A stretch of 64,000 bases of DNA from a virus (Duplodnaviria > Heunggongvirae > Uroviricota > Caudoviricetes), in IMG/VR virus record IMGVR_UViG_3300001605_000009; one strand, 5' to 3'. Each line of letters opens with the position of its first letter. Within the stretch, counting starts at the first letter, position 1. The position numbers and the translations under genes are program-made. Below, in pieces: positions 11,443-64,000 of this stretch. Below the pieces are notes generated by a model, which worked only from the letters and a program-made list of their open reading frames with translations, had not been told where the DNA came from and did not search any database.

Positions 11443-11444
11443 GT

Positions 11445-11530: not shown

Positions 11531-11625
11531 TTGCTTGATACATATGTTATAACTGAAATAAGATAAGAAGTCAAGATATATTTTTTAAATGGTGGGTGGC
11601 CCACTATAGGCCACCCACTATATAA

Positions 11626-25425: not shown

Positions 25426-25454
25426 GTCTTTTCGTCTTTATTGTCGGCTGTCAG

Positions 25455-33746: not shown

Positions 33747-34118
33747 AATTATTTCTCTGCCGCTTTTCATCGTTATTAGTTTATTCGTGAACTCATTCCA
33801 TGTTTTAGCCCAAGGCCCACGAAAAGTCAAGACATATGTTTGACCATGCGAATCCACTTTGTGAAAATCTTCTCTAGTAGTAATGAAGGGAATCAAGCTA
33901 GGTTTATATTCACGAACGCTACCGTCGAGCATAGTCTCGGTCAGCTTTCCTTTTAGGACCCAACTAAAGCAGTTGAATGCATGATTGTGAAAAGCTTCAC
34001 GGCTACGACCGTCAAATTTTAGTATAAGAGCCGAGAATAAGCGCCTAGACTCAATAAGCCAGTAACCTGTTACTGTGCTTTCTGGTCCGCCGTCTTTCAT
34101 TTTCTTAAGGAGCTTCAT
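33741..34118 (-). CDS. hypothetical protein
   Basis: ORF only. Confidence 0.35.
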   Translation of the reverse strand: MKLLKKMKDGGPESTVTGYWLIESRRLFSALILKFDGRSREAFHNHAFNCFSWVLKGKLTETMLDGSVREYKPSLIPFITTREDFHKVDSHGQTYVLTFRGPWAKTWNEFTNKLITMKSGREIIG

Positions 34119-34375
34119 CCGTACATTTCCTGTTGCTCAAACATTCTTTCACGAAGACTAACTTCACGAAATAGTGCATCGTCCGGAACTGTTTTTAGTA
34201 GATCAATCTGCTCTTCTGTGAGTTGTGTACAGTAGTATCCATAATCTTCTGGATCAAGCTTTAACACATTCTTAATATAGTTAAAATAACTATGTTGATG
34301 TTCTGGACTAAGGTAGGCTCGGTTTACTAACATACCTCCATCTTTGACCCAAACTGGTACTTGAATTTCTTCCAT
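34115..34375 (-). CDS. hypothetical protein
   Basis: ORF only. Confidence 0.35.
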   Translation of the reverse strand: MEEIQVPVWVKDGGMLVNRAYLSPEHQHSYFNYIKNVLKLDPEDYGYYCTQLTEEQIDLLKTVPDDALFREVSLRERMFEQQEMYG

Positions 34376-34376
34376 A

Positions 34377-34727
34377 TCAAAATACCTTTAGCTGATTTGC
34401 ACTGAACCCAATCTGACGATACAGAATATCATTCAAGATAGGAAGTTTAGTTTTAACTATACCCATACGCTGAGAGTTAGGCTTCTTACGAAGAATAGTA
34501 CCTCTAGTCTTTAGACCCGCACCCTTTGCTAGTATAGCAATCTGACGTCCAATCTCATACCCAGGACTACTAATATCGTAGTTAAATGGCTCGCCATTAT
34601 AAATGGAAAGAATACCAGCATGAATACTAGGAATATTTAGCCAGTCTTCTACGGTTGTTCTAACGCCCTCTACGGTAATATTGCTCATTAGTATCTCCAC
34701 TTGTTGAAACCATATTAGCGGATTCAA
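34377..34727 (-). CDS. hypothetical protein
   Basis: ORF only. Confidence 0.35.
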   Translation of the reverse strand: MNPLIWFQQVEILMSNITVEGVRTTVEDWLNIPSIHAGILSIYNGEPFNYDISSPGYEIGRQIAILAKGAGLKTRGTILRKKPNSQRMGIVKTKLPILNDILYRQIGFSANQLKVF

Positions 34728-34756
34728 CGTGAAGGATCAAGACTTAAATTAGGAAC

Positions 34757-34832
34757 TGGTGAACCATGTTGGGATCGAACCAACGACACGGAGATTAAGA
34801 GTCTCCTGCTCTACCTACTGAGCTAATGGTCC
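34757..34832 (-). tRNA. tRNA-Lys (CUU)
   Basis: Acceptor strands GGACCAT and ATGGTTC, D-arm TAGCTCAGTAGGTAGAGC, anticodon stem GGAGA/TCTCC with loop CTCTTAA, and T-loop TTCGATC. Confidence 0.7.
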
Positions 34833-34987
34833 GAATACTTAACTCAATACACTAGATATTGTTAATACCACTCCGTTTAGCTTAAGAGTGCGTAAAAGCG
34901 ACCTGACAATCACCCTTTCGCATAGTGTCAGCTATACCGACACTTTGAGAGAGTGCCGTCTAGTGTACTGAGTTAAATACTCGGTAA

Positions 34988-35063
34988 TGGTGCCTCCCCG
35001 AGGAATCGAACCCCAACCTCTAGTTCTTCAGACCAGCGCGCACACCAGCTACGCCAGAGAGGC
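34988..35063 (-). tRNA. tRNA-Phe (GAA)
   Basis: Acceptor strands GCCTCTC and GGGAGGC, anticodon loop CTGAAGA, and T-loop TTCGATT. Confidence 0.7.
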
Positions 35064-35187
35064 AAAATGCTGTTACGGTAGCACTCCACTTGATTTATAC
35101 ATAGAACGTCAACTAGATAGCGTCTGCAGTACGGACCTAGTAATATAGTCTAGTGATAAATAGTGAAGTGCTGTCATAACAGCACAA

Positions 35188-35269
35188 TGGAGTCGGCGAC
35201 AGGATTCGAACCTGCATTTTCAATCCAGTTACCTTTCTCTCCGTTCGTAGCGGAGGGGGTTACGCCGAC
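35188..35269 (-). tRNA. atypical tRNA-like gene, 82 nt; the anticodon arm may read ACG (Arg) but the D-arm is irregular
   Basis: The acceptor strands GTCGGCG and CGCCGAC pair perfectly, the T-arm is GCAGG-TTCGAAT-CCTGT, and the 3' end is CCA. The internal arms CTCCG-CTACGAA-CGGAG do not fit a standard cloverleaf. Confidence 0.4.
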
Positions 35270-35278
35270 AATATTATT

Positions 35279-35944
35279 TTACCAGTTGGGTACTTTGTTA
35301 GATTTCTTTAGATTTTCTTCTACGGTTAAATACTGTAGGTTATTCTCTACATGTAGTCCACAACTATTTTTAGCGTTAAGAGGGTATATATGATCTACAT
35401 GATACCCTTCTGGACACTCATTATATATTTCTTTTAGCTTCTTAATATCTGCCCATGGAGCTAGGGCTTGTTTTAGTTGGGCCCTTCTTCTGGCATTCTT
35501 TTCTCTACCATGTATTTTCCAGTATTCCTGATGATACTCTTTATTATTTTGATAATTATTCTTATTATATGAAGATTTACAATCTGTGCAGTACCTGTCT
35601 ATACCGTCATGCTCTAGGGCAGATTTAGTGAAAGTCTCTCTTAAAGAGAATTCACTACATCCGGAGCACTTCTTGTAGTCTGACTGTCTTACTAGCCAGG
35701 ATACCCAGGTACCCTCCCCTCCTTGTAGCTTTACCTCAGGAAATAGCCTCTTAACTAATCTATTAAAGGTCTGTTCAGACCTACCAAGACTTTTTATAGC
35801 TTTTGGACCTGTTCCATAAGTAAATAGGGCGTCTACCACTTCTCCAAAACAAATAGGTGGTTTTTCACCTCTTTTGTTAATGACTATAGTGTACTGCCCT
35901 ATGTTTAGGTTTTTATAAATTGATTCTTTTACTTTCTGTTCCAT
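35279..35944 (-). CDS. HNH homing endonuclease, inserted within the tRNA cluster
   Basis: HNH motif GYHVDHIYPLNAKNSCGLHVENNLQYLTVEENLKKSNK. N-terminal DNA-binding region. The promoter at 35953-35997 lies upstream. Confidence 0.75.
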   Translation of the reverse strand: MEQKVKESIYKNLNIGQYTIVINKRGEKPPICFGEVVDALFTYGTGPKAIKSLGRSEQTFNRLVKRLFPEVKLQGGEGTWVSWLVRQSDYKKCSGCSEFSLRETFTKSALEHDGIDRYCTDCKSSYNKNNYQNNKEYHQEYWKIHGREKNARRRAQLKQALAPWADIKKLKEIYNECPEGYHVDHIYPLNAKNSCGLHVENNLQYLTVEENLKKSNKVPNW

Positions 35945-35952
35945 ATTCCAAA

Positions 35953-35997
35953 ATAATAGCAGTTTGGAGGACAGAAGTCAAGAACTAAAATTTGGTA
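35953..35997 (-). promoter_or_regulatory. sigma70 promoter with TTGACT, a 17-nt spacer and TATTAT
   Basis: The minus strand reads aaattttagttcTTGACTtctgtcctccaaactgcTATTAT, followed by the ribosome-binding site and ATG of the HNH gene. Confidence 0.55.
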
Positions 35998-36070
35998 CCC
36001 CAGGCGAGACTCGAACTCGCACAACTTTCGGACCTAAACCGAACGACTTTACCAATTTGCCCACAGGGGC
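35993..36070 (-). tRNA. tRNA with a UAG anticodon (Leu-like); one U-U acceptor mismatch
   Basis: Anticodon stem TTCGG/CCGAA with loop TTTAGGT, T-arm GCGAG-TTCGAGT-CTCGC, and acceptor strands GCCCCTG and CTGGGGT. Confidence 0.5.
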
Positions 36071-36078
36071 ACAATAAA

Positions 36079-36154
36079 TGGTGGAGGATAACGGGATCGA
36101 ACCGTTGGCCTCAACAGTGCAAGTGTTGCGCTCTCCCAGCTGAGCTAATCCCCC
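36079..36154 (-). tRNA. tRNA-Ala (UGC)
   Basis: Acceptor strands GGGGGAT and ATCCTCC (one G-U pair), D-arm TAGCTCAGCTGGGAGAGC, anticodon loop CTTGCAC, and T-loop TTCGATC. Confidence 0.75.
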
Positions 36155-36156
36155 AT

Positions 36157-36232
36157 TGGTACCTGATGACGGTCCTGCCCCGCCGACCTGAGTCTTGTAA
36201 GGACCCCGCTCTACTAACTGAGCTAATCAGGC
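36157..36232 (-). tRNA. tRNA-Val (UAC) with a non-canonical T-loop
   Basis: The whole gene aligns with canonical bacterial tRNA-Val except that the T-loop reads GGCAGGA instead of the canonical TTCGATC. The anticodon loop is CTTACAA. Confidence 0.5.
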
Positions 36233-36380
36233 AAACTTTTTTCTACAGGCATACTTTCGTAGCTGTTTCTTTTTATCTTTAATAACTTTTGGTTTGTTGT
36301 ATCTGTAGCTATTACCTGCTACAGGGTTTCTTGTCTTCATTTCAAGTTCTCCTTATAGCAAGAATTTAACTAACAGTCAA

Positions 36381-36457
36381 CATCTAAATTTGGTGAACCC
36401 TCTGGGATTCGAACCCAGGATCGCGGATTAAAAGCCCACTGCTTTAGGCCTACTAAG
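36381..36457 (-). tRNA. tRNA-Lys (UUU)
   Basis: Acceptor strands GGACCCT and AGGGTTC, anticodon loop CTTTTAA, and T-arm CTGGG-TTCGAAT-CCCAG. Confidence 0.7.
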
Positions 36458-36471
36458 CTAAGGGTCCGTTA

Positions 36472-50144: not shown

Positions 50145-51189
50145 TTAGTAGTTCCTTAATGATATGATAATGATCGTCGAACATAACACTTTCATCTAGC
50201 TCAGAGATATTAATCCAGCCAGCTGAGACAGCATCATCTGCGCCAACCACATCAGGTCGTTTACCCATCCAGCTAATATCAAAGTAAAAACAGTGACTTA
50301 CAGTATGTCCCATAGTTGAGCGACCTGGATGATCGGCAATGAACAGCTTTGGCTTCCCACTAAGTAGTAGGTCATCCTTAGTAAGTTGCAAACCAGTTTC
50401 TTCAAGCAGCTCACGAAGTGAGCCAGCTAGTGTGCGCTCGCCCGCATTAAGATGGCCCCCAGGAAGAGCTAGAAGCCCCTTACCGGGGTGTTTTCCACGC
50501 TCTACAAGCAGAATCTGGTCGTTATATCGAACCACAGCATCTACAGTGATCTGCTTAACAGGATACGGGGAAGAAGACCACAACTCTGTGTTTATATCAA
50601 TTTCTGTCTGCCAATCAGACATGTAGTTGATAAAACCTAGCTCAGAGTTAGTAATTACGTCTACTGTGCTCCATGGGAGGTTATCTAGCTGTAGCGAAAA
50701 GTCTCGGAAGAGTTCTTCACGAATATCAGTGGCATTCAGCGGGGCATCAATAGCCCACTCTACTAGATCATAGTTTGGGAACATATCAAGGTAGTAGCTA
50801 GACTCGTCCTTACGGGCACCGATGATGCCAATCTTGAGGTCAGCAGTACCATTGTTGTGAAATCCATCAGGATTGGCAACGTCTAGTGCTGTGAACTTGA
50901 TAGCTTCTCTTACTTCGGCAGCCCATGCACTATCATCATAGGGCTGGTCCCGAATAGCGTCTGTATATAGATTTGTGCCTTCAGGATAAGAAGCTAGAAT
51001 CATATCAGAGCGCTCTTCATAGGTCCATGGATTCTTTGGAGTACGCGCACCACCAGAACTTCCAATAAGAACTAGGACGTTCTTGGCTTTGGTAAAAGCA
51101 TGGTCGATCACACTCTTGTGACCCTTATGAAACGGCTGAAAGCGTCCGATGTATACTAGAAGGTCGTACATTATTATCTCCTTATGCAC
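50137..51189 (-). CDS. bifunctional NMN adenylyltransferase and Nudix ADP-ribose pyrophosphatase (NadM-Nudix, NatV-like)
   Basis: Nucleotidyltransferase motif GRFQPFHKGH at the N-terminus and Nudix box GGHLNAGERTLAGSLRELLEETG at the C-terminus. Confidence 0.85.
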   Translation of the reverse strand: MHKEIIMYDLLVYIGRFQPFHKGHKSVIDHAFTKAKNVLVLIGSSGGARTPKNPWTYEERSDMILASYPEGTNLYTDAIRDQPYDDSAWAAEVREAIKFTALDVANPDGFHNNGTADLKIGIIGARKDESSYYLDMFPNYDLVEWAIDAPLNATDIREELFRDFSLQLDNLPWSTVDVITNSELGFINYMSDWQTEIDINTELWSSSPYPVKQITVDAVVRYNDQILLVERGKHPGKGLLALPGGHLNAGERTLAGSLRELLEETGLQLTKDDLLLSGKPKLFIADHPGRSTMGHTVSHCFYFDISWMGKRPDVVGADDAVSAGWINISELDESVMFDDHYHIIKELLNG

Positions 51190-53718: not shown

Positions 53719-53925
53719 TTACCATGACGGAAACTCATCTTCATAATCAGAGTTATAGGCATCCCAACCATCTCGCCGGAGTTGAGCCTGATTTTCTCGG
53801 TAAGATGGAATCTCTGAGCAGGGGTTACTAATATTATAAACTACAGGTTTATCTGAGCTGAGCATACTCTTTAGCCAGCGCACATCAGCCTCTAGTCGGG
53901 CCACTCTTAGTTCTAGTTCATTCAT
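53719..53925 (-). CDS. hypothetical coiled-coil protein
   Basis: ORF only. Confidence 0.3.
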   Translation of the reverse strand: MNELELRVARLEADVRWLKSMLSSDKPVVYNISNPCSEIPSYRENQAQLRRDGWDAYNSDYEDEFPSW

Positions 53926-54467
53926 TATTCAAATCCTCTTAGTGCAGCAAATGTTTTAGGCAGACTCTGACAGACTTCGTACGCTAGCAGCAGCTTTCGC
54001 ACTTCTGCATCCGTCATTTCATCTAGGTCTTTGGGACTTTGAAATCCTCGGCCCACAATTTTAACAAGTTCAGCTCCCGCGCGGTCTGCGTCTCCAATTG
54101 CAATGATCGGTCGCTGTCTACGCATAATACGGAACCAAGATACAAGTCGTCTAGGCGTTGCTCCAAGAACCGCGACGGCGGACAGACCAAGATTGTGTAG
54201 CTTGATTGCTTTAAAGATTCCCTCAACGATGTATAGTGGGCCTCCAAAGTCTCTGGAGTAGAATCCGTCGACATCCCTCGGTAAATACGTATAATATCTT
54301 CCTTCTCGTGGGTCATTTCTTTTCTCCTTACTAGCGCCAGGTCGGTAAACCTGATAACCTACTAGCCTGCTACCGTTGTACAGCATAAATGTAGCTGTTT
54401 CGCCATCAGTGTAATATGTGCCCGGAGAGGCACCACGTGAGGCCATATGTTCAACCAAGCATGTCAC
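53925..54467 (-). CDS. standalone TOPRIM-domain protein
   Basis: TOPRIM motifs IVEGIFKAIKLHNLG and AIGDADRAG. Confidence 0.5.
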   Translation of the reverse strand: MTCLVEHMASRGASPGTYYTDGETATFMLYNGSRLVGYQVYRPGASKEKRNDPREGRYYTYLPRDVDGFYSRDFGGPLYIVEGIFKAIKLHNLGLSAVAVLGATPRRLVSWFRIMRRQRPIIAIGDADRAGAELVKIVGRGFQSPKDLDEMTDAEVRKLLLAYEVCQSLPKTFAALRGFE

Positions 54468-55461: not shown

Positions 55462-55500
55462 TTTTATATTGCAAAAGCGTTGCAAAGTCAGAGGAAATCA

Positions 55501-55818
55501 ATGGAAGAAAAACTAGACAAAATTATATCACTACTAGAGGAGTTAGTTTATAACTCTAAACACTATAACGGATATGTTAAATGGTCCTACGAACAGGAAG
55601 AATTTCTAGATATTATGTTTACAGCAGGGCACGATGTTCCAGAATTAATAAAGCTCATTAAAGAAAAATTTGGTATTGATAGATCAGCCGGGGCCATATG
55701 CTCTAGACTAAGTAAGCTTGGACTAAATAAGCCTATTGAAAAGAAACGAGTCATTGAAAAGAAAGAGTCTACTACTATAGAAGATATTTTTGACCTACTA
55801 CCGTGGGAAGTAGAATGA
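55501..55818 (+). CDS. helix-turn-helix protein (plus-strand member of the paralog family)
   Basis: The ATG at 55501 has a ribosome-binding site upstream. Motif IKEKFGIDRSAGAICSRLSKLGL. Confidence 0.5.
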   Translation: MEEKLDKIISLLEELVYNSKHYNGYVKWSYEQEEFLDIMFTAGHDVPELIKLIKEKFGIDRSAGAICSRLSKLGLNKPIEKKRVIEKKESTTIEDIFDLLPWEVE

Positions 55819-56324
55819 GCGTAGATAATATTAGAAACAATCCGCGATGGACCGCAGAAGAAGAAGAGAAACTGTGTAGGGCTGTATCCGCTTACTCGGA
55901 TTGGGACGAAGTCCCATACGCTAGTATTCAGGACAAATACTTCCCACACCGATCTGTGTCAGCTCTGCAAGCTAAGTATCTTCGTACTAAAGATAAATAT
56001 TCCTTCTATCAGTGGAGTGATAACGCATCTAAAAATGTGTTCAGAATGTACCTGGATGGGGCCTCCATCGGTCAAATTCACACTAAGATGATAGAAGTGG
56101 GACTAACTGGAGCGAGCCCACGAGATATTGAGCTAGAGATAGAAAGGCTTCGAGGGATTCTCTCTAGTAAGGTTAGGACTTATGCCGAAGAGCATGGACT
56201 TAGGCCAACTAAGAGATATTCGCTGGAACAGCTCCAAGCTTTCGCCAAATTCAAAGCTCCCGAGGGCAACTCCTTCGCAGCTAAAGCCGCTATTGCAGCG
56301 CTTCATGAGATTATTAATGGCTAG
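55803..56324 (+). CDS. Myb/SANT-like helix-turn-helix repeat protein
   Basis: WTAEEEEKL and a helix-turn-helix motif of the paralog-family type. Confidence 0.45.
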   Translation: MGSRMSVDNIRNNPRWTAEEEEKLCRAVSAYSDWDEVPYASIQDKYFPHRSVSALQAKYLRTKDKYSFYQWSDNASKNVFRMYLDGASIGQIHTKMIEVGLTGASPRDIELEIERLRGILSSKVRTYAEEHGLRPTKRYSLEQLQAFAKFKAPEGNSFAAKAAIAALHEIING

Positions 56325-56637
56325 AGGCTGGACACCACAAGAGGATGAATTACTACTTAGACTTCGAGACGAAGGTCTCACAGCTAGGGAGATTGCTCTT
56401 AGACTAGAGCGCAGTGCTGGAGCAATCAGAATGAGAGCTTCACTACTAGCTGAGGACAAGCAGAAACGCTGGACTGAAGCTGATAAGCAGCTAGTATTTC
56501 AACTTAAATCTGAAGGACATACTAACAAGTTTATTGCTATAAAACTGGGCAGAACAGCATCTTCAATTAGTACGTTTGTCTCTCGCAACTGGCATGTTGA
56601 ACAGGCTTCAACCGATGCTAGGAAAAATAATTCTTGA
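56317..56637 (+). CDS. Myb/SANT-like helix-turn-helix repeat protein (start set to the ATG at 56317)
   Basis: Motifs WTPQEDELLLRL, IALRLERSAGAIRMRASLL and IAIKLGRTASSISTFVSRNW. Confidence 0.45.
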   Translation: MARGWTPQEDELLLRLRDEGLTAREIALRLERSAGAIRMRASLLAEDKQKRWTEADKQLVFQLKSEGHTNKFIAIKLGRTASSISTFVSRNWHVEQASTDARKNNS

Positions 56638-56663
56638 CATTTGATATCGCATATGGTATCATA
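56622..56663 (+). promoter_or_regulatory. sigma70 promoter (TTGACA, 17-nt spacer, TATCAT) firing into a 500-bp ORF-free region
   Basis: aaaaataattcTTGACAtttgatatcgcatatggTATCAT. It overlaps the stop of the preceding gene. Confidence 0.5.
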
Positions 56664-57112
56664 CAAACTATGTTAAGTTAGATTGCTTTATATTTACTTT
56701 TATTCTGTTATTGACCTGATCGCGACGGTCCGAGCGTCTCGGATCCGTCGCGTATTCAGGGAGACTCAATACAGACTTTATATCGTGTCTAACTTGTTTT
56801 GCTACAGCCCTTAACGGGCTGGAATTGCGTTTAAAATCCGCTACAAAAATTATGGCTATTTTAAGCTCTTTCTACAAGGCTGTATCGGCTTTTTGATAAC
56901 TTTCTCTTCATTCATCATAAACTTGATCCAACCTAACTCTAGCCGCTCGCTTTAGCCTCGATTCAGCCTGCTGTAGCTCGTTAAAATGTCGTTAGTTGCG
57001 CACGAAGTGCGCTGGATTTAGCTTCAGGCACCAGCTCAACCAAAATAATTTTTTGGCGCTTTTGCTTGGGTGCCAACACAAAAAAGGCCGTACCAAACTG
57101 GCACAGCCTCAT

Positions 57113-57154
57113 AAAAACCGAAAAAAGCGGGTCTAACTTTCGTTAGGCCCGCTT
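57113..57154 (-). terminator. rho-independent terminator (bidirectional, stronger on the minus strand)
   Basis: AAGCGGGTCTAAC-TTTCG-TTAGGCCCGCTT with a T6 tract on the minus strand. Confidence 0.65.
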
Positions 57155-57161
57155 AAGTTGT

Positions 57162-57380
57162 TTAATCTGCAAAAATCTCGTAAGAAAGCTCAAAATCTGC
57201 GTCAAGCACCATCTCACCTACTAGCAGTTCCTCGTCCTCGGAGAGGACTAGCACGATGTCAAAAAATCCAGCAGCACTGTGCACAACCTGGATCGCCTCG
57301 CGATCATACTCTAGGAAAAGGTCTGGAATAGCTTGCGCATACTGCGTCAAGATCGTCTCAATATCGTCGCGAATGTTCAT
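57162..57380 (-). CDS. small acidic protein
   Basis: A 72-residue Asp/Glu-rich ORF. Confidence 0.4.
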   Translation of the reverse strand: MNIRDDIETILTQYAQAIPDLFLEYDREAIQVVHSAAGFFDIVLVLSEDEELLVGEMVLDADFELSYEIFAD

Positions 57381-57575
57381 TGCTTATCTCCGTTGCTTGA
57401 AACTCATTCTAGCCGTTTTAGTGCGCGAAGTCAACATGAAAAAAATAGTTCTTGACACCAGTTTGCACCTGGTTGGCGAACGAAGTTCGCAAGCTTGGTA
57501 AAAATAGTTCTTGACACAAGCATGGCCTAAAATAGATGTTGACTTCGCACTAGCCGGCGCAGGATTTTTGGCGCT

Positions 57576-57620
57576 ACAAAAATAACCGCCACACCTTTGC
57601 AGGGGGCGGTTATTTTTCGT
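57576..57620 (-). terminator. bidirectional rho-independent terminator
   Basis: ATAACCGCC-loop-GGCGGTTAT with T-tracts on both strands. Confidence 0.6.
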
Positions 57621-57768
57621 ACTAGCCGATCCAACGGCAGGCTCTGTTCATTCTAGACTGCGTAAAACAGGCACTGGGAGGGATCCGGTCGTGTACTGAT
57701 ACTAGGAGGGGTGAGGAGTGTCGTTGCTACTCAATGCCTCACCTTATTGTAGCGTTTCCTAGTATTGC

Positions 57769-58080
57769 TTAGGCACTCAGTTTCGAACGAAGTTCGACGA
57801 GTACCAACTTAGGAGCCTTCTCAAGACCATCGAGGCTGCGACCAACGAGGGCCGAAATCTCAGCTACAATGTCTTCCTTGCTCTCGATCTTACCGCCAGT
57901 CTTGCTGGTCTTGACCTTACCACGGTAGGAGCCGAGGCGGACTGCCTTAGCACGCACCGAGCGCACGTCCTTACCAAATTCAGCGGCGAGCATTTCTGCC
58001 GTAGCGTTGTCGATAACCTCGAATTCAGCGAGGCGGGCTTCTTGAGCGTCGGTGTAGTTCTTGATGATGGTCTTGGTCAT
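57769..58080 (-). CDS. helix-turn-helix paralog family member
   Basis: LAAEFGKDVRSVRAKAVRLGSYRGKVKTSKTGG aligns along its whole length with the ORF at 60752..61075. Confidence 0.55.
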   Translation of the reverse strand: MTKTIIKNYTDAQEARLAEFEVIDNATAEMLAAEFGKDVRSVRAKAVRLGSYRGKVKTSKTGGKIESKEDIVAEISALVGRSLDGLEKAPKLVLVELRSKLSA

Positions 58081-58148
58081 AAATGATCCTTTTCTTGGGT
58101 TGATTTAGTATTTATAGTTGGTTTGGGGTTGAATGTCAACTACTATTT

Positions 58149-58244
58149 TCAGAAGTCCTGGTACATGTCCCAGACGCGGCTGGTGTCGTAGTCGTCTTCG
58201 AGGGCGTCTTGGTCTTCAACGAAATCGTCTTGATACTGATCCAT
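58149..58244 (-). CDS. 31-residue highly acidic mini-protein (candidate DNA mimic or anti-restriction protein)
   Basis: MDQYQDDFVEDQDALEDDYDTSRVWDMYQDF, with the ribosome-binding site gaaggaagga upstream. It is not in the ORF track. Confidence 0.4.
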   Translation of the reverse strand: MDQYQDDFVEDQDALEDDYDTSRVWDMYQDF

Positions 58245-58278
58245 ATTTTGTTTCCTTCCTTCTCGCTCTTGATGTACT

Positions 58279-58310
58279 CTTATAACCGGAAAGCGGTCGG
58301 CGGTCAACAT
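58279..58310 (-). promoter_or_regulatory. sigma70 promoter (TTGACC, 17-nt spacer, TATAAG) carrying the conserved box CTCTTGATGTACTCTTATA
   Basis: The box recurs upstream (on the minus strand) of the genes at 59215..59940 and 60752..61075. Confidence 0.5.
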
Positions 58311-58339
58311 AAACTTTTAGCAGTGCTGGTCGGCTTTGG

Positions 58340-58380
58340 TTATTTTTTAACTTGACTTTGCATTGATTTGCCACTATAAT
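58340..58380 (+). promoter_or_regulatory. consensus sigma70 promoter (TTGACT, 17-nt spacer, TATAAT) firing into a 470-bp ORF-free segment
   Basis: ttaacTTGACTttgcattgatttgccacTATAATtttggcgctgcgcgcc. Confidence 0.6.
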
Positions 58381-58716
58381 TTTGGCGCTGCGCGCCTTAC
58401 CAGACCTTCTTCGAGGTCATTTTCAGCACACGTAAAAATTGAACTTGCACTAGGTCGTCGCGGCGCTAAGGGGCTCGTTATAAGTTGCTCCCGCACTCTT
58501 CCTAGCAGGTAACTTTCGCACTAGCATTGCTTTCGCACTGGCGCAGGAACGCTGTTCTCGTTTTGTTCTCGGTTTGTTCCATGTGATGATATATCGTTAC
58601 GCTCATTTAACATAACATGCTTTCCCTGATTTAAGCTGCCTAAGTCATTGATATTACTAGATAAAACCGTTTAACATAATGCATTTTATCAAACCCATAT
58701 TTATTTTTCCTAGCTC

Positions 58717-58745
58717 TTGACAAATGTGTTGAAACCTGTTAAAAT
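58717..58745 (+). promoter_or_regulatory. island plus-strand promoter cassette (TTGACA, 17-nt spacer, TAAAAT, then CGGCGC), copy 1
   Basis: cTTGACAaatgtgttgaaacctgtTAAAATcggcgc. A TG dinucleotide at -15/-14 gives an extended -10 element. Confidence 0.6.
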
Positions 58746-58932
58746 CGGCGCTAGGCCATTTTCGGCGCTGTCACATCCATTATAGCAGGTTTTAATGGGC
58801 TTGTCAATAGGAAAAATCGCCTGTGGATAAATATATTCTAGCGCGGCCTGACCGAACAAAACGGGAACAAAAATTTCGGCGCATTCAGCGCGCTATTTTC
58901 AGTATAGCATATGCCAAAAATGCTGTCAAGCG

Positions 58933-58973
58933 AAAAAAATGCTCCAGAACCAGTCTGGAGCATTTTCTTTTTC
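58933..58973 (-). terminator. bidirectional rho-independent terminator
   Basis: ATGCTCCAGA-ACCAGT-CTGGAGCAT flanked by an A6 tract and a T tract. Confidence 0.75.
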
Positions 58974-59175
58974 AGTCCTTCACTTCAACGTCGATAGTAA
59001 AGGATAGTTCGACTTCTTTATATAACTTGACGTTATAAACACTTACGCCATTTTTTACTTCCTCTTTAATGTCGTCTAGTATGTCTGCTAGTGACTCACT
59101 ATAGTAACTGCCAGTCACACCGCCAGTAATGCCCAAGATTTCAGCATAAAACATAATACTTAATCCTTTTTCCAA
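58972..59175 (-). CDS. hypothetical small protein
   Basis: ORF followed by a terminator. Confidence 0.4.
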   Translation of the reverse strand: MEKGLSIMFYAEILGITGGVTGSYYSESLADILDDIKEEVKNGVSVYNVKLYKEVELSFTIDVEVKD

Positions 59176-59214
59176 AGTTGGGGCAAGTAATCATTACTTG
59201 CCCCGTTTCTGTTT

Positions 59215-59940
59215 TTACTTGACCGTGAAGTGATCCCGAACGGCGAAGTCACGATAGTTGTATGGCGGCGGATTCATATAGTCAGACGGTGAAGTATTTT
59301 TGACTAATGCCGTAAGAATAGGCACCTCGTAATACTTGGCGTCTTCTAGTGCCGTATGTGGTTCGTCTGGCAATCCCGCGCCTAGCAGAAATTTTGCCAT
59401 AACATCGGCATTAGTTTGCACGCCCATATGCCCTGTTTTACTTGTGCGATTGCCGAAATAGTGATTCTGCAAAGCAAAGTTAAGAAAAGCGCGAGTATTG
59501 CCCCACTTAGCAGCGGCAGCGTGCCACAAACAAAATTGACTAGGGAACAAATCATTGGCAATAATGCCAGACTTGTTCATCTTATCACGGTCGAAAGCCA
59601 AGTTATAGGCTGTCATAACAGGCGAGTACTTAGCGGCAATCTTGCTAAGTACGCGATTAACAGCACCAACGCTTGCCAATACTCGCGTTCCGTCTTGTAG
59701 CATTTGCTCATAAGCGGCGTAGCGCGCGGGCAGGCTTTCCTTGCTGAAAACATCGCCCTTATCCCCGAAAACATGAAACAGAGGGTGCGCCTCTTTATCG
59801 CTGAAAAAGTCGCCAATTAGAATGCCCATCTCATAATGGATGTTTCCTTGCTTGTCGGAAACAACGATGCCCATATCCGCGACCATATTGGTTTGCGTTG
59901 TTTCCGTGTCAATTGTCAAGAAAAACTTTTTCTTACCCAT
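59215..59940 (-). CDS. DEDDh 3'-5' exonuclease (DnaQ/RNase T-like)
   Basis: Exo I FLTIDTETT, Exo II YNLAFDRD and Exo III HTALEDA motifs. Confidence 0.75.
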   Translation of the reverse strand: MGKKKFFLTIDTETTQTNMVADMGIVVSDKQGNIHYEMGILIGDFFSDKEAHPLFHVFGDKGDVFSKESLPARYAAYEQMLQDGTRVLASVGAVNRVLSKIAAKYSPVMTAYNLAFDRDKMNKSGIIANDLFPSQFCLWHAAAAKWGNTRAFLNFALQNHYFGNRTSKTGHMGVQTNADVMAKFLLGAGLPDEPHTALEDAKYYEVPILTALVKNTSPSDYMNPPPYNYRDFAVRDHFTVK

Positions 59941-59998
59941 TTTTCGTTCCTTTGCCCTTTGGGTCTTTCAGGAGAGCCTTGCGCCCTCTTGATGCTCT

Positions 59999-60045
59999 CT
60001 TATACCTAGCGAATCGTTGCCCGTCAAGAAAAACTTTTCCACAAT
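59999..60045 (-). promoter_or_regulatory. sigma70 promoter (TTGACG, 17-nt spacer, TATAAG) with an upstream DnaA-box-like TTTTCCACA
   Basis: The minus strand reads TGTGGAAAAgtttttcTTGACGggcaacgattcgctaggTATAAG. Confidence 0.55.
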
Positions 60046-60061
60046 TTATTTATTTTTGCTC

Positions 60062-60090
60062 TTGACAGATTGATTGGACCCTGTTAAAAT
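60062..60090 (+). promoter_or_regulatory. island plus-strand promoter cassette, copy 2
   Basis: cTTGACAgattgattggaccctgtTAAAATcggcgcc, with a terminator hairpin starting about 10 nt downstream. Confidence 0.6.
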
Positions 60091-60098
60091 CGGCGCCA

Positions 60099-60131
60099 AT
60101 AAACCCTTGAAAAACAAGGGTTTATTTTGTT
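60099..60131 (+). terminator. rho-independent terminator
   Basis: AAACCCTTG-AAAAA-CAAGGGTTT followed by ATTTTGTT. Confidence 0.65.
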
Positions 60132-60136
60132 GGCTG

Positions 60137-60538
60137 CTATACTATCGGAAACACAAGTATTGCAAGCAATATAGAATTGAGAGCAAAGCCAATGCCATTA
60201 GAGACAATATAGAGCATATCCTTTTGATATACTGCTCGCCACAAGTAAAGCGCCAAGCCAACCCAAGTCAAGAGTACCATTGATAGTGGTGGCATAGTGG
60301 TGTTATATCCGGCAATTTTTCCGACCATAGTGGGAACAGTATTGCTATGCAGCATAACCATTGCAAGCCAGCCAGCAATTTCAGGGGCTGGCATATTGCG
60401 AATTTTTTGAAAAAACATTGACTTTTCCTTTTTCTTGGGAAAATTCCCATAAGCCGCGTCATGCAAACAAGCCGCCACTAGATCATTGCCTAGTGCCCGT
60501 TCCCGCTTGCTTGCCGCTAGAAGTTCGTTTTTCGTCAT
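60137..60538 (-). CDS. membrane protein with C-terminal transmembrane helices
   Basis: A 133-residue ORF with a hydrophobic C-terminal half. Confidence 0.45.
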   Translation of the reverse strand: MTKNELLAASKRERALGNDLVAACLHDAAYGNFPKKKEKSMFFQKIRNMPAPEIAGWLAMVMLHSNTVPTMVGKIAGYNTTMPPLSMVLLTWVGLALYLWRAVYQKDMLYIVSNGIGFALNSILLAILVFPIV

Positions 60539-60607
60539 GCCCTCTTATGGACTAGGCCAGCCGACCCGTCAAGAAAAACTTTTCCACAAATAAAAATAAA
60601 TAAGCTA

Positions 60608-60636
60608 TTGACAAACCCTAGCGCGTCTGCTAAAAT
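60608..60636 (+). promoter_or_regulatory. island plus-strand promoter cassette, copy 3
   Basis: aTTGACAaaccctagcgcgtctgcTAAAATcggcgcc. Confidence 0.55.
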
Positions 60637-60704
60637 CGGCGCCTCCAGCCGGATTTTTTGGCGCTAATACAATTATAACAGAATCAAAAGGCTTTGTCAA
60701 GCCC

Positions 60705-60742
60705 AAAAAACAAATAAAAAAAGTGGGGGATTTCTCCCCCAC
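60705..60742 (-). terminator. rho-independent terminator (minus strand only)
   Basis: GTGGGGGA-TTTC-TCCCCCAC followed on the minus strand by TTTTTTTATTTGTTTTTT. Confidence 0.75.
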
Positions 60743-60751
60743 CCTATTGAC

Positions 60752-61075
60752 TTATGCGGAAAGCCGTTCCCGAAGGATTTGCAAGGCCAGCTTAGGGGCC
60801 TTTTCCAGTCCGTCCATATTTTTCTGGACAAGTGCCGCAATGTCTGCAACAATGTCTTCCTTGGTTTCGACTGGGCCGCCAGTCTTGCTGGTCTTTTCCT
60901 TAGCCTTATAAATGCCCATGCGAGTTGCCTTAGCGCGAATTGAGCGAACGTCCTTGCCGAGCTTTTCGGCCAATTCGATTGCCTTATCATTGTCAATGAT
61001 GCCAGCGGCCAAGAGAACAGCCTCTTGTTCAGCCGAGTAGTTCTTGACGGTTTCGGTTTTTGCAGTAGCAGCCAT
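60752..61075 (-). CDS. helix-turn-helix paralog family member
   Basis: LAEKLGKDVRSIRAKATRMGIYKAKEKTSKTGG is co-linear with the ORF at 57769..58080. Confidence 0.55.
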   Translation of the reverse strand: MAATAKTETVKNYSAEQEAVLLAAGIIDNDKAIELAEKLGKDVRSIRAKATRMGIYKAKEKTSKTGGPVETKEDIVADIAALVQKNMDGLEKAPKLALQILRERLSA

Positions 61076-61208
61076 GAGAAAATTTCCTTTTTATCTCGAA
61101 GGGCCTATCCCCTCTTGATGTACTCTTATACCGCGCGTTTGCATGTCTGGCAAGAGAAAAATGCACGAAAGCCGAAAAAACTTTTCCACAGTACATTTAT
61201 TTTTGCTC

Positions 61209-61237
61209 TTGACAGGCTCTAGGAAACCTGCTAAAAT
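61209..61237 (+). promoter_or_regulatory. island plus-strand promoter cassette, copy 4
   Basis: cTTGACAggctctaggaaacctgcTAAAATttggcgcc. Confidence 0.55.
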
Positions 61238-61287
61238 TTGGCGCCAATAGGCCTTCAGAAATCTTTTCGCTTGACACGTTTTTTCGC

Positions 61288-61316
61288 TTGACACGGCTGG
61301 CGTTCCGTCCTATAGT
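61288..61316 (+). promoter_or_regulatory. additional plus-strand promoter (TTGACA, 17-nt spacer, TATAGT) inside a tandem 17-bp duplication
   Basis: The sequence cgcTTGACAcg occurs twice. The second copy is followed by a 17-nt spacer and TATAGT, and about 70 nt further on by a terminator. Confidence 0.5.
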
Positions 61317-61354
61317 GAGAGTAGCGGGCAAAATTTTCGGCGCCTTTGGCACAT

Positions 61355-61390
61355 TTAAAAGGTGGGAACAAGTCCCACCTTTTACTTAAT
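61355..61390 (-). terminator. bidirectional rho-independent terminator
   Basis: AAAAGGTGGGAACAAGTCCCACCTTTT. Confidence 0.7.
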
Positions 61391-61598
61391 GTGCTCTGTA
61401 ATCAAGTATAGATTGCAATTCGATTATTTCCCGCAATGTCCTTTGTTTCTCCATGTTTGCAGTATAAAGATCAACAATGATTGACGAAATCAGATCCTCT
61501 TGTAGTGCTAGTTTGTCCTCTGCACAGTCAAGCTGCAATTCTAGTGGTTCCTCGTTCATGCCGCTAACTTTCCGTTTTGCTTTACAGCGTTGAAACAA
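61386..61598 (-). CDS. hypothetical small protein
   Basis: ORF with a terminator at its end. Confidence 0.4.
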   Translation of the reverse strand: MFQRCKAKRKVSGMNEEPLELQLDCAEDKLALQEDLISSIIVDLYTANMEKQRTLREIIELQSILDYRAH

Positions 61599-62029
61599 GT
61601 AATACCGATTGAAAGCATTGCGTCAATTACTTTCAAGTTATCGTCAAACATAATTGCGCAAGCATCCTTTGCACAAGAAAAGCCTTCGCCCGCAAAGTAT
61701 GCTTCTAGCAGATCAACTTTCAATTGCGCGTCCCCGCGCATATCGTTAACGCCGCGCGACAAGAAAACATCATGTTCTAGTCCATGCTTTTCAAGGAACA
61801 AATGGTTGCTTTCATGTGGCGAACGCGCCGTGCAAATGATAACCGTATGGCCAGCCTTTTTAATCTGTTTCATGCTTTTTGCAAGTGGCAAAAGCGAGTC
61901 ACCCATAATTTTCTCATGGGTATTATTCTCCAGCCAGTGCGCAAGATTAAGCGAGCCATCGGGCAACGTGTTTTGACGGTGGCTTGAGTCGATAACCGTG
62001 CCATCCAAGTCGAAAATTACATAAGCCAT
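61556..62029 (-). CDS. HAD-superfamily 5'-nucleotidase (deoxyribonucleoside 5'-monophosphatase-like, comparable to T5 dmp)
   Basis: HAD motif I FDLDGTV at the N-terminus. The gene is small and located in a pre-early-like island. Confidence 0.65.
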   Translation of the reverse strand: MAYVIFDLDGTVIDSSHRQNTLPDGSLNLAHWLENNTHEKIMGDSLLPLAKSMKQIKKAGHTVIICTARSPHESNHLFLEKHGLEHDVFLSRGVNDMRGDAQLKVDLLEAYFAGEGFSCAKDACAIMFDDNLKVIDAMLSIGITCFNAVKQNGKLAA

Positions 62030-62122
62030 TTTGCTAGTCCTTGCTGTCTTGATGCCCCATTATTGCCAGAAAAGCGGCATAGCGTCAAGAAGTTTTTATC
62101 CACAATTAAAAATAATTTGCTA

Positions 62123-62151
62123 TTGACAACCTATAAAAATCCTGCTAAAAT
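62123..62151 (+). promoter_or_regulatory. island plus-strand promoter cassette, copy 5, with a perfect DnaA box 20 nt upstream
   Basis: aTTGACAacctataaaaatcctgcTAAAATcggcgct. TTATCCACA is at 62096-62104. Confidence 0.55.
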
Positions 62152-62160
62152 CGGCGCTAA

Positions 62161-62197
62161 TTAAGCCTTTGAAAACAAAGGCTTAATTGCTTGTTTA
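62161..62197 (+). terminator. rho-independent terminator
   Basis: TTAAGCCTTTG-AAAAC-AAAGGCTTAA followed by TTGCTTGTTT. Confidence 0.6.
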
Positions 62198-62635
62198 ATC
62201 TATGGGGCAAGAGGACTGGCAGCTCTTGCTTGCCCACCAAACCGTTTCCGGTCTTGACAGCCGATTAAAAGTGCGAATGTCAAGTAAAATTGGCTCTCCC
62301 GAATGTTCGCTAGTCGCCAGCTTTTCCACCTTGTCAAGCCAGCGATTAGAGTATTCTGCGTCAGCTAATATGTATTCAATTGGGCAGCCGTCAAACATAT
62401 CGTATTTGAATGTTTTAGAGAATGCAATAACGCTAGAGCGATCAAAAGAAAAGCGCGCCTTTGGTGGGTTTACTAGCCCAAACCAACGCCTAGTGCTAGA
62501 ACGCTTTTCTTCTGATTTGACCCAGCTATTGACTTGTTTGTCAGTTTCTACAGTGACTTGATGCACAATTTCAAGGCGGCAATCCTCTACCATTGCCAGA
62601 AGTGAAGCCTTAGTGACTGGAACAAAACCCTTCAT
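62195..62635 (-). CDS. hypothetical protein
   Basis: ORF only. Confidence 0.4.
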   Translation of the reverse strand: MKGFVPVTKASLLAMVEDCRLEIVHQVTVETDKQVNSWVKSEEKRSSTRRWFGLVNPPKARFSFDRSSVIAFSKTFKYDMFDGCPIEYILADAEYSNRWLDKVEKLATSEHSGEPILLDIRTFNRLSRPETVWWASKSCQSSCPID

Positions 62636-62835
62636 GCATAATTCCTTTGAATAAAGCGATCACCAAAACGATCAAGAGCGAGAATCTGCCAATCATCACT
62701 TTCATAGTCGATATCTATATCGTAGTCAAGCGGTTCTGCAACAAAAAACAGATCACAATCCCATGCTTCCGTGCTAGCATTATCTGCTAAGTGCCAGTCA
62801 AGAGGTTCGTTCATTGCTTCATTCCTTGTTTCCAT
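62632..62835 (-). CDS. small acidic protein
   Basis: A 67-residue Asp/Glu-rich ORF containing DYDIDIDYESDDW. Confidence 0.4.
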   Translation of the reverse strand: METRNEAMNEPLDWHLADNASTEAWDCDLFFVAEPLDYDIDIDYESDDWQILALDRFGDRFIQRNYA

Positions 62836-62882
62836 GAATCCACCTTAGACAATAAAAAACGCCTGTCAAGAAATCTTTTCTC

Positions 62883-62910
62883 TTGACAAAATAAAATAAC
62901 CTGCTAAAAT
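62883..62910 (+). promoter_or_regulatory. island plus-strand promoter cassette, copy 6 (16-nt spacer)
   Basis: cTTGACAaaataaaataacctgcTAAAATcggcgc. Confidence 0.5.
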
Positions 62911-62975
62911 CGGCGCATCTGAGCCAAAAAATTCGGCGCTACTACCATTATAGCATGAAGCTAAATTGTTGTCAA

Positions 62976-63009
62976 ATAAAAAATAAGGCCTGAAGGCCTT
63001 ATTTTTTAG
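62976..63009 (-). terminator. bidirectional rho-independent terminator
   Basis: AATAAGGCC-TGAA-GGCCTTATT flanked by an A6 tract and a T6 tract. Confidence 0.7.
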
Positions 63010-63194
63010 TTCTCCACAACTCTAGCGGCCTTATATTGGGCCGCTTTCATGAAACGCTTAGCCTTATCCAAGGCGTCGCGGGCCTCGCCAGCAGTGTCAA
63101 AATATTGTGCCCGTTCGATCCTTCCAGCAAAGGTCCATACCGTGCCGCGCAGGTAGCAGATGCCTTGTGGTGTGGTCAGTTGAACAGTGAACAT
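63006..63194 (-). CDS. hypothetical small protein
   Basis: ORF only. Confidence 0.35.
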   Translation of the reverse strand: MFTVQLTTPQGICYLRGTVWTFAGRIERAQYFDTAGEARDALDKAKRFMKAAQYKAARVVEN

Positions 63195-63282
63195 TGCTTA
63201 TCTCCTTGCTGATGAATTAACCCTAGGCCATAGCAGTCCCAATGTCTAGCAGTATTTATCCACAAGCAAATTTTATTTGCTC

Positions 63283-63310
63283 TTGACAAACTATAGAAAA
63301 CCTGTCAAAA
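63283..63310 (+). promoter_or_regulatory. island plus-strand promoter cassette, copy 7 (-10 hexamer CAAAAT), with a perfect DnaA box at 63256-63264
   Basis: cTTGACAaactatagaaaacctgtCAAAATcggcgcc, with a hairpin immediately downstream. Confidence 0.45.
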
Positions 63311-63347
63311 TCGGCGCCAATGGGAGGCTTTGCAGCCTCCCATTTTG

Positions 63348-63551
63348 TCAACCATAATTCTGCCAATTCACAATATCGGCCAATGCTTGTTCTGCCGTTG
63401 GCTTTTCATCATAATGCTTGACAAAATCCTCGTCAGTGCCTTCAAAGATTAGATGGTTTCTTCGAGGCAACCAAAAGGCGGCTTGATCCTTTTCGCCACC
63501 ATACCAAGAAACCATTAGATCATTGTGCACCCATTCAGCAGTTGTTTTCAT
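63348..63551 (-). CDS. hypothetical small protein
   Basis: ORF only. Confidence 0.35.
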   Translation of the reverse strand: MKTTAEWVHNDLMVSWYGGEKDQAAFWLPRRNHLIFEGTDEDFVKHYDEKPTAEQALADIVNWQNYG

Positions 63552-63754
63552 CGGCTAGACTCCAATCCAAAGGCTTCGAGGCCTTCATCACCATATTCGC
63601 TTTCTACCGCTTCTGCAAGCATTTCTTCTGGAGTATAGTCGGCTTCCCAGAAATCATAGTAATTCTGGTCAGGCCAGCAATCCGTTGGCATTCCCACGGT
63701 TTCGATCATAAGAGCGTCAACCCGTGCCATCCAAGTCTTGAAAGAAACTGCCAT
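63548..63754 (-). CDS. small acidic protein
   Basis: A 68-residue acidic ORF overlapping the downstream gene by 4 nt. Confidence 0.4.
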   Translation of the reverse strand: MAVSFKTWMARVDALMIETVGMPTDCWPDQNYYDFWEADYTPEEMLAEAVESEYGDEGLEAFGLESSR

Positions 63755-63832
63755 TTGTTATCTCCTCGTTACAAGAACAACCTAGGCCCTAGCTTATCCC
63801 TAGTCAATCCCTAAAATAAAAAACTTTTGCTA

Positions 63833-63861
63833 TTGACAGGTTGAATTGAACCTGCTAAAAT
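63833..63861 (+). promoter_or_regulatory. island plus-strand promoter cassette, copy 8
   Basis: aTTGACAggttgaattgaacctgcTAAAATtggcgcc followed by the hairpin TAGGGCTTTGG-TTTC-CCAAAGCCCTA. Confidence 0.55.
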
Positions 63862-63900
63862 TGGCGCCAATAGGGCTTTGGTTTCCCAAAGCCCTATGTG

Positions 63901-64000
63901 TCAAGGGATTATTTCAAAAGATTCGCCATGATCGTGAAAATATTCTTCTCCACCCATTTCATAGAAGTATTCTTCTATCGTCTCTTTATCAGTAAGGCTA
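63901..64000 (-). CDS. hypothetical acidic protein, C-terminal part only (gene starts beyond the right edge of the window)
   Basis: In-frame minus-strand ORF ending ...EEYFYEMGGEEYFHDHGESFEIIP with its stop at 63901. Confidence 0.35.
   Translation of the reverse strand, partial: SLTDKETIEEYFYEMGGEEYFHDHGESFEIIP

Follow-up and report, generated by a model that had tools for sequence, protein, structure and literature searches.

A conserved gene-free segment at the pre-early/early-like junction of a distant T5-like phage is a candidate non-coding transcription unit

The 64,000-nucleotide stretch of DNA analysed here (the window) belongs to a tailed virus of the class Caudoviricetes (IMG/VR record IMGVR_UViG_3300001605_000009) and carries, between two convergent genes, a 524-bp gene-free gap at 56638-57161 (whole-window coordinates, as throughout) that we consider as a possible non-coding transcription unit. 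To the left of this segment lies a plus-strand gene (56317-56637), the last of three at 55480-56637 that encode helix-turn-helix (HTH)/Myb-type proteins, and its product matches the PHROG family 'D5-like transcriptional regulator'. To the right is a minus-strand gene for a protein of 72 amino acids (57162-57380), and another HTH-type gene is found downstream of the segment. The window DNA has no match in 50,697 phage records searched with megablast and blastn, and its DNA polymerase is nearest to that of the Demerecviridae, with ~44% amino-acid identity. Followed along the direction of transcription, from right to left, the genes come in a T5-like order: small genes, among them that of a T5-type dNMPase (61556-62029), form a block leading up to the segment, which is followed by a primase (a primase-like gene at 53925-54467, ~2.2 kb from the segment), NAD-salvage genes, RNA ligases, tRNAs, NAD-ligase, helicase and PolA. 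The affinity of the polymerase and this gene order together place the virus, by sequence comparison, as a distant, uncultured T5-like phage. They also bear out the view of a first-pass annotation, made from the sequence alone, that the segment sits at a strand switch and at what would be the pre-early/early-like junction of the genome.

The gap contains only open reading frames (ORFs) of 26-46 amino acids, none of which keeps its frame or length in any relative, in agreement with the earlier annotation, which had seen no ORF there. Moreover, its most conserved block is interrupted by 1-nt and 11-nt indels among relatives. These indels, which break the ORFs, together with the lack of any ORF conserved in frame, lead us to rule out a hidden protein gene. 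The downstream rise in GC content that had been noticed is right in direction but small, from 0.420 left of 55400 and 0.422 in the segment to 0.445 in 57162-64000, so that the compositional boundary amounts to a slight 2.5 GC points. Coding density draws a sharper line, with 99% in the early block on the left versus 62% in the right block (the latter taken over 57162-64000 and a further ~1.3 kb past the window end, from locus L002), and that right block has about 11 long intergenic gaps, the segment among them. The folding of the whole segment exceeds chance by far on both strands, with z-scores of -5.9 (plus) and -6.5 (minus), or -6.2 and -5.8 in a second run, against -3.6 to +2.4 for three coding controls.

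The relatives used for comparison are contigs that carry homologues of the 72-amino-acid protein (28 homologues, 63-88% identity), to which two loci, L023 and L024, were added from a DNA-motif scan of metagenomes. Besides identical copies of the window they comprise 12 distinct related metagenomic sequences, and comparisons of the conserved core rest on 13 aligned sequences. Every relative that reaches far enough has a gene-free gap of 524-736 bp between the 72-amino-acid-type gene and the convergent gene; in L023 and L024 the upstream gene differs from the HTH gene of the window. The ~115-nt block at the 3' side of the gap has an identity to the window of 76-97%, against 73-87% for the 72-amino-acid gene and 57-65% for the HTH gene, and in silico it shows the mark of purifying selection. 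For the 5' domain (56669-56813), identity to the window is no more than 35-54%, a random-like level. The element was found only in metagenomic contigs: IMG/VR yielded no relative by protein, alignment or DNA motif except one weak, unrelated HTH match, and neither the GTDB genomes nor INPHARED (blastn) contained a match to it.

The left end of the gap carries a predicted plus-strand promoter of the sigma-70 type at 56634-56662, first annotated at 56635-56663, which consists of TTGACA-17-TATCAT with an extended -10 TG (score 11/12 with the TG) and is directed into the segment, with a predicted transcription start near 56669. The HTH gene ends in a TGA stop codon with which the -35 box overlaps. 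In all full-length relatives the -35/-10 pair, the 17-nt spacing and the TG are retained around five different spacers: TTGACA-TTTGATATCGCATATGG-TATCAT, TTGACA-AAAAGCAAATAATCTGG-TATATA, TTGACA-CTGAACAAAGAATATGG-TATTAT, TTTACA-TTTTATTTTCCGTATGA-TATAAT and, in L023 and L024, where the upstream gene is another, TTGTAA-TTTGATTTTAAGTATGA-TATAAT. In L008-type relatives the promoter stands ~28 nt beyond the stop codon, and coding constraint therefore does not explain its conservation. A 20-mer of the promoter, GAAAAATAATTCTTGACATT, is identical to a copy at the HTH-operon promoter (55421), and the promoter also resembles the minus-strand early promoters of the phage (repeat families D11, D3 and D7). 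Hexamers near TTGACA/TATAAT, a spacing within 16-18 nt and conservation with a freely varying spacer are what would be expected of a genuine sigma-70 promoter.

Downstream of the predicted start, the 5' domain is conserved in structure only. It contains a long plus-strand hairpin at 56715-56760, in which a 13-bp GC stem, GCGACGGTCCGAG/CTCGGATCCGTCGC, at 56722-56751 is extended by CCTGA/TCAGG; the stem had been recognized in the first-pass annotation, but at 56735-56765, and its true place is 13 nt further left. A long hairpin of unrelated sequence occupies the same place in every relative; nine mutually unalignable hairpin types give the domain folding z-scores between -4 and -8. The pair L008 and L025, with near-identical flanks, shows several compensatory changes in the 5' stem. 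In 10 of 12 sequences the plus strand of the domain is the more stable one. A second, small plus-strand hairpin, CAGCCC-UUAAC-GGGCUG, at 56805-56821 corresponds to the stem-loop CAGCCCTTAACGGGCTG reported earlier; relatives also have a hairpin there, of different sequence, which reads GAGGAC-GAA-GTCCTC in L021, L023 and L024.

The core of the segment (56877-57110) is conserved in sequence. Within the predicted RNA, a conserved stretch comprises three CUACAA repeats and the block AAGGCTGTAYYGGCTTTTT. The conserved block AGGCTGTAYYGGCTTTTT at 56877-56894 is, on the plus strand, a candidate 5' arm for a long-range helix with 57081-57109. This helix would comprise 16 pairs, with 93-96% of cells paired in the alignment and one-sided changes only (C-G to U-G); its pairing holds on the plus strand, whereas the minus-strand version has mismatches. 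The region that follows at 56936-56978 is variable and made of short phased GCTnTAGC-like units, spaced at 10-11 bp, whose copy number varies among relatives: Tandem Repeats Finder reports a weak 11 bp x 2.2 array in the window and perfect arrays of 10 bp x 5.7 in L017 and 11 bp x 2.8 in L024.

The conserved 3' block (56996-57110) begins with an invariant plus-strand 17-mer, TTGCGCACGAAGTGCGC, at 56996-57012, with a 6-bp stem and a GAA loop, which is identical in 13/13 aligned sequences. Its hairpin, GCGCAC-GAA-GTGCGC, is the previously listed stem-loop GCGCACGAAGTGCGC (56998-57012), which is thus present as described. The block further includes the plus-strand helix GGCACCAGC/GCTTGGGTGCC at 57027-57074, which encloses an A/T-rich loop and an invariant GGCGC (57055-57059), as well as the invariant arrangement GGCGC-N8-GGGTGCC and a terminator, T2, discussed below. 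The helix fits the plus strand and is mismatched on the minus strand; its 3' arm is invariant, its 5' arm varies through plus-strand U-G and G-U pairs, and its inner three base pairs change from AGC/GCT to ACC/GGT among relatives. An alternative pairing, GGCGC/GUGCC, is possible. In both the long-range and the GGCACC/GGTGCC helix, the sole variation tolerated takes the form of plus-strand U-G pairs. The minus strand has a long-range pairing option of its own, and also a possible weak promoter, TTGGCA-16/17-nAAAAT, at 57076-57048 (score 9/12), which is conserved in the alignment except in L019 (TCGGCA).

The right end of the segment is closed by two predicted terminators. T1, at 57125-57154, is common to the convergent units and is predicted to be strong on the minus strand (tail TTTTTTCGGTTTTT) but weaker on the plus strand (tail AAGTTGTTTAATCT). 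Its sequence is only ~60% conserved; the stem shows two-sided covariation at 8/12 pairs, with 98.7% of cells paired. The bidirectional terminator of the first-pass annotation is therefore present at that place and readable on both strands, but it is the stronger on the minus strand and has a weak tail on the plus strand, and the second hairpin, T2 (57084-57110), had been missed. T2 belongs to the minus-strand pre-early-like operon, has 12 pairs and the tail TTTTTTGTGTT, is nearly invariant in sequence and shares bases with the candidate 3' arm of the long-range helix on the plus strand. When G-U pairs are admitted, 13/13 sequences pair without mismatch on the minus strand, through changes from G-U to G-C or A-U, against 2-4 mismatches in 11/13 on the plus strand; the minus-strand pairing is also retained by the variants found in L008, L011 and L025. 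Since it is free of mismatches on the minus strand only, T2 is best read as a minus-strand RNA hairpin and second terminator of the opposing operon. U-tracts follow both hairpins on the minus strand (UUUUUUCGGUUUUU after T1 and UUUUUUGUGUU after T2), and on the plus strand T1 only, with a weak tail. GC-rich hairpins followed by minus-strand U-tracts, and stems kept by compensatory change, mark both T1 and T2 as probable intrinsic terminators. Like the bidirectional intrinsic terminators known between convergent operons, T1 lies between convergent units and consists of a covarying hairpin, rich in GC, with A-runs and T-runs on its flanks, and T2 would be the second of a tandem pair. However, the terminators account for only ~70 of the 524 bp, and the almost complete sequence invariance of T2 is unusual for a plain terminator.

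Based on what is seen in silico, namely the absence of coding capacity, the conserved promoter, the conserved folding of the 5' domain, the covariation of T1, the minus-strand specificity of T2 and the selection on the 3' block, we propose that the segment is a conserved non-coding transcription unit that gives a ~490-nt plus-strand RNA at the pre-early/early junction of this distant T5-like phage. We hold this interpretation with about even confidence; that a plus-strand transcript of some kind crosses the segment is likely. The host-type (sigma-70) promoter at 56634-56662, which shares its sequence class with that of the adjacent HTH-regulator operon, would drive a predicted untranslated transcript (56669-57160, with both ends placed from the promoter and T1) that would end at the shared terminator T1. 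This RNA would run head-on into the end of the minus-strand pre-early-like operon, which is predicted to stop at T1 and T2. The 5' third of the RNA would form a long hairpin domain of which the folding alone is conserved, and the sequence-conserved 3' third (56996-57110) may be closed by the long-range helix 56877-56894/57081-57109. The RNA would overlap the 3' end of the pre-early transcripts in antisense over its last 40-80 nt, and a protein of the phage or the host could bind to its invariant 3' domain. Because no terminator separates the two, the transcript would also form a 3' extension of the HTH-operon mRNA. We infer the production, the end and the function of this RNA from these features, and we suggest with low confidence that it acts as a regulatory RNA at the switch from pre-early to early genes. 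Among the three roles put forward in the first-pass annotation, a non-coding RNA of ~450 nt is the best supported, with promoter, folded 5' domain and terminator all conserved. The segment is in our view a well-documented candidate, and its function a candidate one.

Comparison with known RNAs places the predicted transcript outside the families of Rfam. A scan of the whole window with Rfam gives nothing in the segment at the gathering score, and at E values up to 10 the 55-59 kb region gives terminator-like noise only, the best matches being to a terminator-like Listeria small RNA with 24.8 bits against a gathering score of 80. ARAGORN finds no tRNA or tmRNA in the segment, and a literature search on T5 non-coding transcripts at the pre-early/early junction returned nothing relevant. 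In its length of several hundred nucleotides, its strong predicted folding and its setting in a tRNA-rich phage genome, the RNA would resemble the large phage RNAs of the GOLLD/ROOL type. It differs from them in that no Rfam family is matched even at E up to 10, in that covariation in the core is weak, and in that the family is known only from about a dozen metagenomic contigs.

Several observations weigh against this proposal. T2 is clearly a minus-strand structure, and in most relatives it is the minus strand on which the core and the terminators fold better. The choice of strand by folding energy, which we tried and abandoned, gave a mixed outcome, the 5' domain favouring plus and the core with the terminators favouring minus. 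The plus-strand U-tract of T1 is poor, which makes the 3' end of the RNA uncertain. The helices of the core show one-sided changes only, T1 is the sole source of statistical support for the structure as a whole, and with 13 related sequences the set is too small for a statistical test of covariation. Other gaps of the right block are likewise conserved among close relatives. Finally, the invariant blocks, the phased short repeats and the motifs shared through partial paralogy with the neighbouring gap at 57381-57768 equally fit DNA sites for the nearby HTH proteins, and the conserved core may work as RNA or as DNA.

These last points lead to an alternative that we regard as possible though unlikely, in which the segment is an ordinary, densely packed regulatory gap with tandem terminators, the promoter or read-through tail of the HTH operon and, in its palindromes and phased short repeats, operator sites for the neighbouring HTH/Myb-type proteins, and any RNA is a by-product. 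Three HTH/Myb-type genes directly upstream and another downstream could supply the binding proteins, and sequence invariance with little two-sided covariation typifies protein-bound DNA. The neighbouring gap 57381-57768 has, just upstream of a promoter-like box, a 15-bp palindrome, GCGAAC-NNN-GTTCGC, with a variable centre and symmetric changes in its halves, and it has GGCGC and TTTGG(C/GT)GC motifs in common with the segment; conservation among close relatives, moreover, extends to all gaps of the right block. However, as dispersed operator motifs the core sequences AACTCTAGCC and AAGGCTGTA had to be rejected, for neither is enriched elsewhere in the window (CTAG is generally common in it). 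Operators would also leave unexplained a 5' domain that keeps its folding and not its sequence. Variation with retained complementarity in the outer stems of the ACGAAGT hairpins speaks for a folded single strand rather than for a fixed protein half-site, and the promoter is conserved with nothing but the segment to express.

The neighbouring gap was also considered in its own right. It appears to be a partial paralogue of the segment core (nhmmer E 0.0045) and contains TCTAGCCG, the box AAAAATAGTTCTTGACAC twice on the plus strand and a conserved GGCGCAGG, which agrees with the nick consensus published for T5, R/GCGCRGG. Further right, the 727-bp gene-free gap 58245-58971, partly conserved in relatives, may be another non-coding unit of the plus strand; it has a promoter-like site at 58352-58380 (plus), a strong plus-strand terminator at 58936-58966 and folding z-scores of -6.4 on the plus strand versus -2.3 on the minus strand. 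A 131-nt direct repeat with 74% identity (57845-57975 and 60828-60958) indicates a paralogue of the 103-amino-acid D5-like HTH gene ~3 kb deeper in the pre-early-like block.

The invariant hairpin of the core belongs to a wider family, NNNNAC-GAA-GTNNNN, of 15-nt hairpins with a constant centre and free but complementary outer stems. Such hairpins occur on the plus strand at 11298-11312, 50409-50423, 55902-55916, 56998-57012, 57476-57490 and 57783-57797. They make up 6/32 perfect hairpins of the window with a 6-bp stem and a 3-nt loop, and all six lie on the plus strand whatever the direction of the genes. In the relatives (L008-L028) most have the same orientation and a few are inverted; one paralogue, in the neighbouring gap, has a varying centre, and the T5 left terminal repeat has none. 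DNA mini-hairpins of the d(GCGAAGC) type are known for their stability, and C(UUCG)G hairpins occur in intercistronic regions of T4. The GCGCAC-GAA-GTGCGC hairpin resembles these in being invariant within a genome-wide set that has a constant AC-GAA-GT centre and complementary outer stems. It differs in that the motif is longer, with a fixed 6-bp stem, and is found mainly on one genome strand regardless of gene direction.

The position of the segment invites comparison with the injection-stop region of T5. In the T5 record AY587007, the right pre-early operon ends at terminators at 8903 and 9196, after which comes a long untranslated region. This region contains an IRD'-spacer-IRC' arrangement with DnaA boxes, DRD repeats and the repeat end at 10139, and then convergent early genes follow (bioRxiv 10.1101/866236); the 7.9% nick and the repeat end both fall inside this untranslated signal region (bioRxiv 10.1101/866236). 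The segment could accordingly be imagined as the counterpart of the T5 injection-stop signal or of a terminal-repeat boundary, that is, as a DNA signal past the pre-early terminators at which first-step transfer pauses or the repeat ends, an explanation that we consider improbable. The phage is T5-like and carries a T5-type dNMPase in the right block, and the T5 signal too is a long untranslated region, rich in repeats and palindromes, that lies beyond the pre-early terminators, where the early genes converge. In both phages the conservation of the non-coding block equals or exceeds that of neighbouring ORFs. Four short metagenomic contigs break inside the element, yet they do so at differing positions, which fits variable repeats better than a physical end.

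In detail, the resemblance to Repeat Region 3, the injection-stop signal in the left terminal repeat of T5 (Heusterspreute 1987; Davison, bioRxiv 10.1101/866236), consists in an untranslated stretch past the pre-early terminators, at a convergent junction, with palindromes and short repeats and with better conservation than many neighbouring ORFs. The differences are that the segment lacks sequence similarity, paired DnaA boxes, a 131-bp inverted-repeat pair and DRD-type dispersed repeats, that it measures 0.5 kb versus 1.2-2.2 kb in T5, and that it has a conserved promoter of its own firing into it. A profile of the core run with nhmmer against T5 bases 1-14000, which include the left terminal repeat, shows no similarity. 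There is no DnaA box (TTWTNCACA) in 56638-57161, 6/11 matches in the window lying at 58.8-63.3 kb. No long inverted-repeat pair like IRD'-spacer-IRC' or IRC-IRD is present either, the sole inverted pair listed for the segment (I14) being a 21-nt match of 86% to 12847-12867. The first-pass annotation had recommended looking for strand-specific nick-site motifs; the T5 nick consensus R/GCGCRGG has no conserved match in the core, and GCGCAGG follows the invariant hairpin only in L008 and L028. An injection-stop signal would, in addition, leave the conserved promoter and the folded 5' domain unexplained. What stands of the earlier suggestion is thus the position, which is analogous to that in T5; the DnaA boxes, the long inverted repeat and the sequence similarity are absent. 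A narrower form of the idea, in which the core 56877-57110 is the injection-stop or terminal-repeat-boundary signal of a T5-like lineage that probably infects Alphaproteobacteria, with a non-T5 sequence built of hairpins and phased short repeats and free of DnaA boxes, seems to us quite improbable. In that case the plus-strand promoter would transcribe or remodel the signal.

A further alternative, suggested in the first-pass annotation, is a replication origin, here one activated or primed by transcription, with a promoter, a structured transcript, iteron-like repeats, adjacent DNA-binding genes and a nearby primase gene. We consider it very unlikely. Transcription-primed origins such as oriF and oriG of T4, the primary origin of T7 and RNA II of ColE1 likewise combine a promoter, a structured transcript of several hundred nucleotides and a region with repeats. 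The promoter here does fire into phased 10-11-bp repeats, genes for DNA-binding proteins adjoin the segment, the primase-like gene at 53925-54467 lies close by, and the loop of the invariant hairpin is of the C-GAA-G type, which gives DNA mini-hairpins of unusual stability and is present in the origins of some single-strand phages. However, the segment differs from transcription-primed origins in having no unwinding element: its only A/T-rich run spans ~17 bp. It has no DnaA box, and its repeats are perfect lineage-specific expansions, present in the window as 2.2 weak copies, instead of conserved iterons. At least three conserved iterons, an AT-rich unwinding element and initiator boxes, by which an iteron-type origin would be recognized, are not found in the segment. 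The GC-skew trend is the same on both sides, save for a bump from the plus-strand genes, and the origins of T5 are reported near the genome centre (bioRxiv 10.1101/866236). The proposal of an origin has no direct support.

The DnaA-box matches outside the segment have a setting of their own. Six to eight copies of a plus-strand promoter-like unit, TT(A/T)TCCACA (DnaA-box-like) ... GCT(C/A)TTGACA-N17-CTGYTAAAAT-CGGCGC(C/T)AAT, are found at 58678-58755, 60023-60100, 60589-60642, 61170-61247, 62084-62161, 62894-62916, 63244-63321 and 63794-63871. They lie in gaps between minus-strand genes and point against these genes, and in several copies a terminator hairpin follows directly (for example 60080-60132 and 62141-62193). 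The 5-kb stretch they occupy includes 6/11 DnaA-box matches of the window.

Elsewhere in the window, two minus-strand tRNA clusters at 9216-11530 and 33349-36467 hold 14 tRNA genes according to ARAGORN and 16 according to Rfam. Between them, in the early region, lies a minus-strand ORF of 2324 amino acids with internal repeats (11626-18600) that has no Pfam or PHROG match. A two-piece (permuted) tmRNA of the alpha-proteobacterial type at 25157-25500 (minus) scores 90.8 bits with the Rfam model tmRNA_permuted and 79.7 bits with alpha_tmRNA, and ARAGORN predicts ANDNSAFEGLALVA as its tag peptide. The two-piece type of this tmRNA suggests an alphaproteobacterial host.

If the segment were a DNA signal, for injection stop or as a repeat boundary, it would provide an independent second example for a question that has been open for 50 years, and under an injection-stop role comparison with T5 would open the mechanism of two-step DNA transfer, long unsolved, to direct test. 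If instead, as we propose, the non-coding RNA is real, it would represent a new family of large structured phage RNA, absent from Rfam, and it would sit at the switch from the first-expressed genes to the remaining genome in a little-known branch of T5-like phages. The shared convergent terminators, the gene-like conservation of the 3' domain and the genome-wide hairpin family that lies mainly on one strand suggest a regulatory layer undescribed for T5, and such an RNA would offer a handle on how T5-like phages time the shut-off of their first genes.

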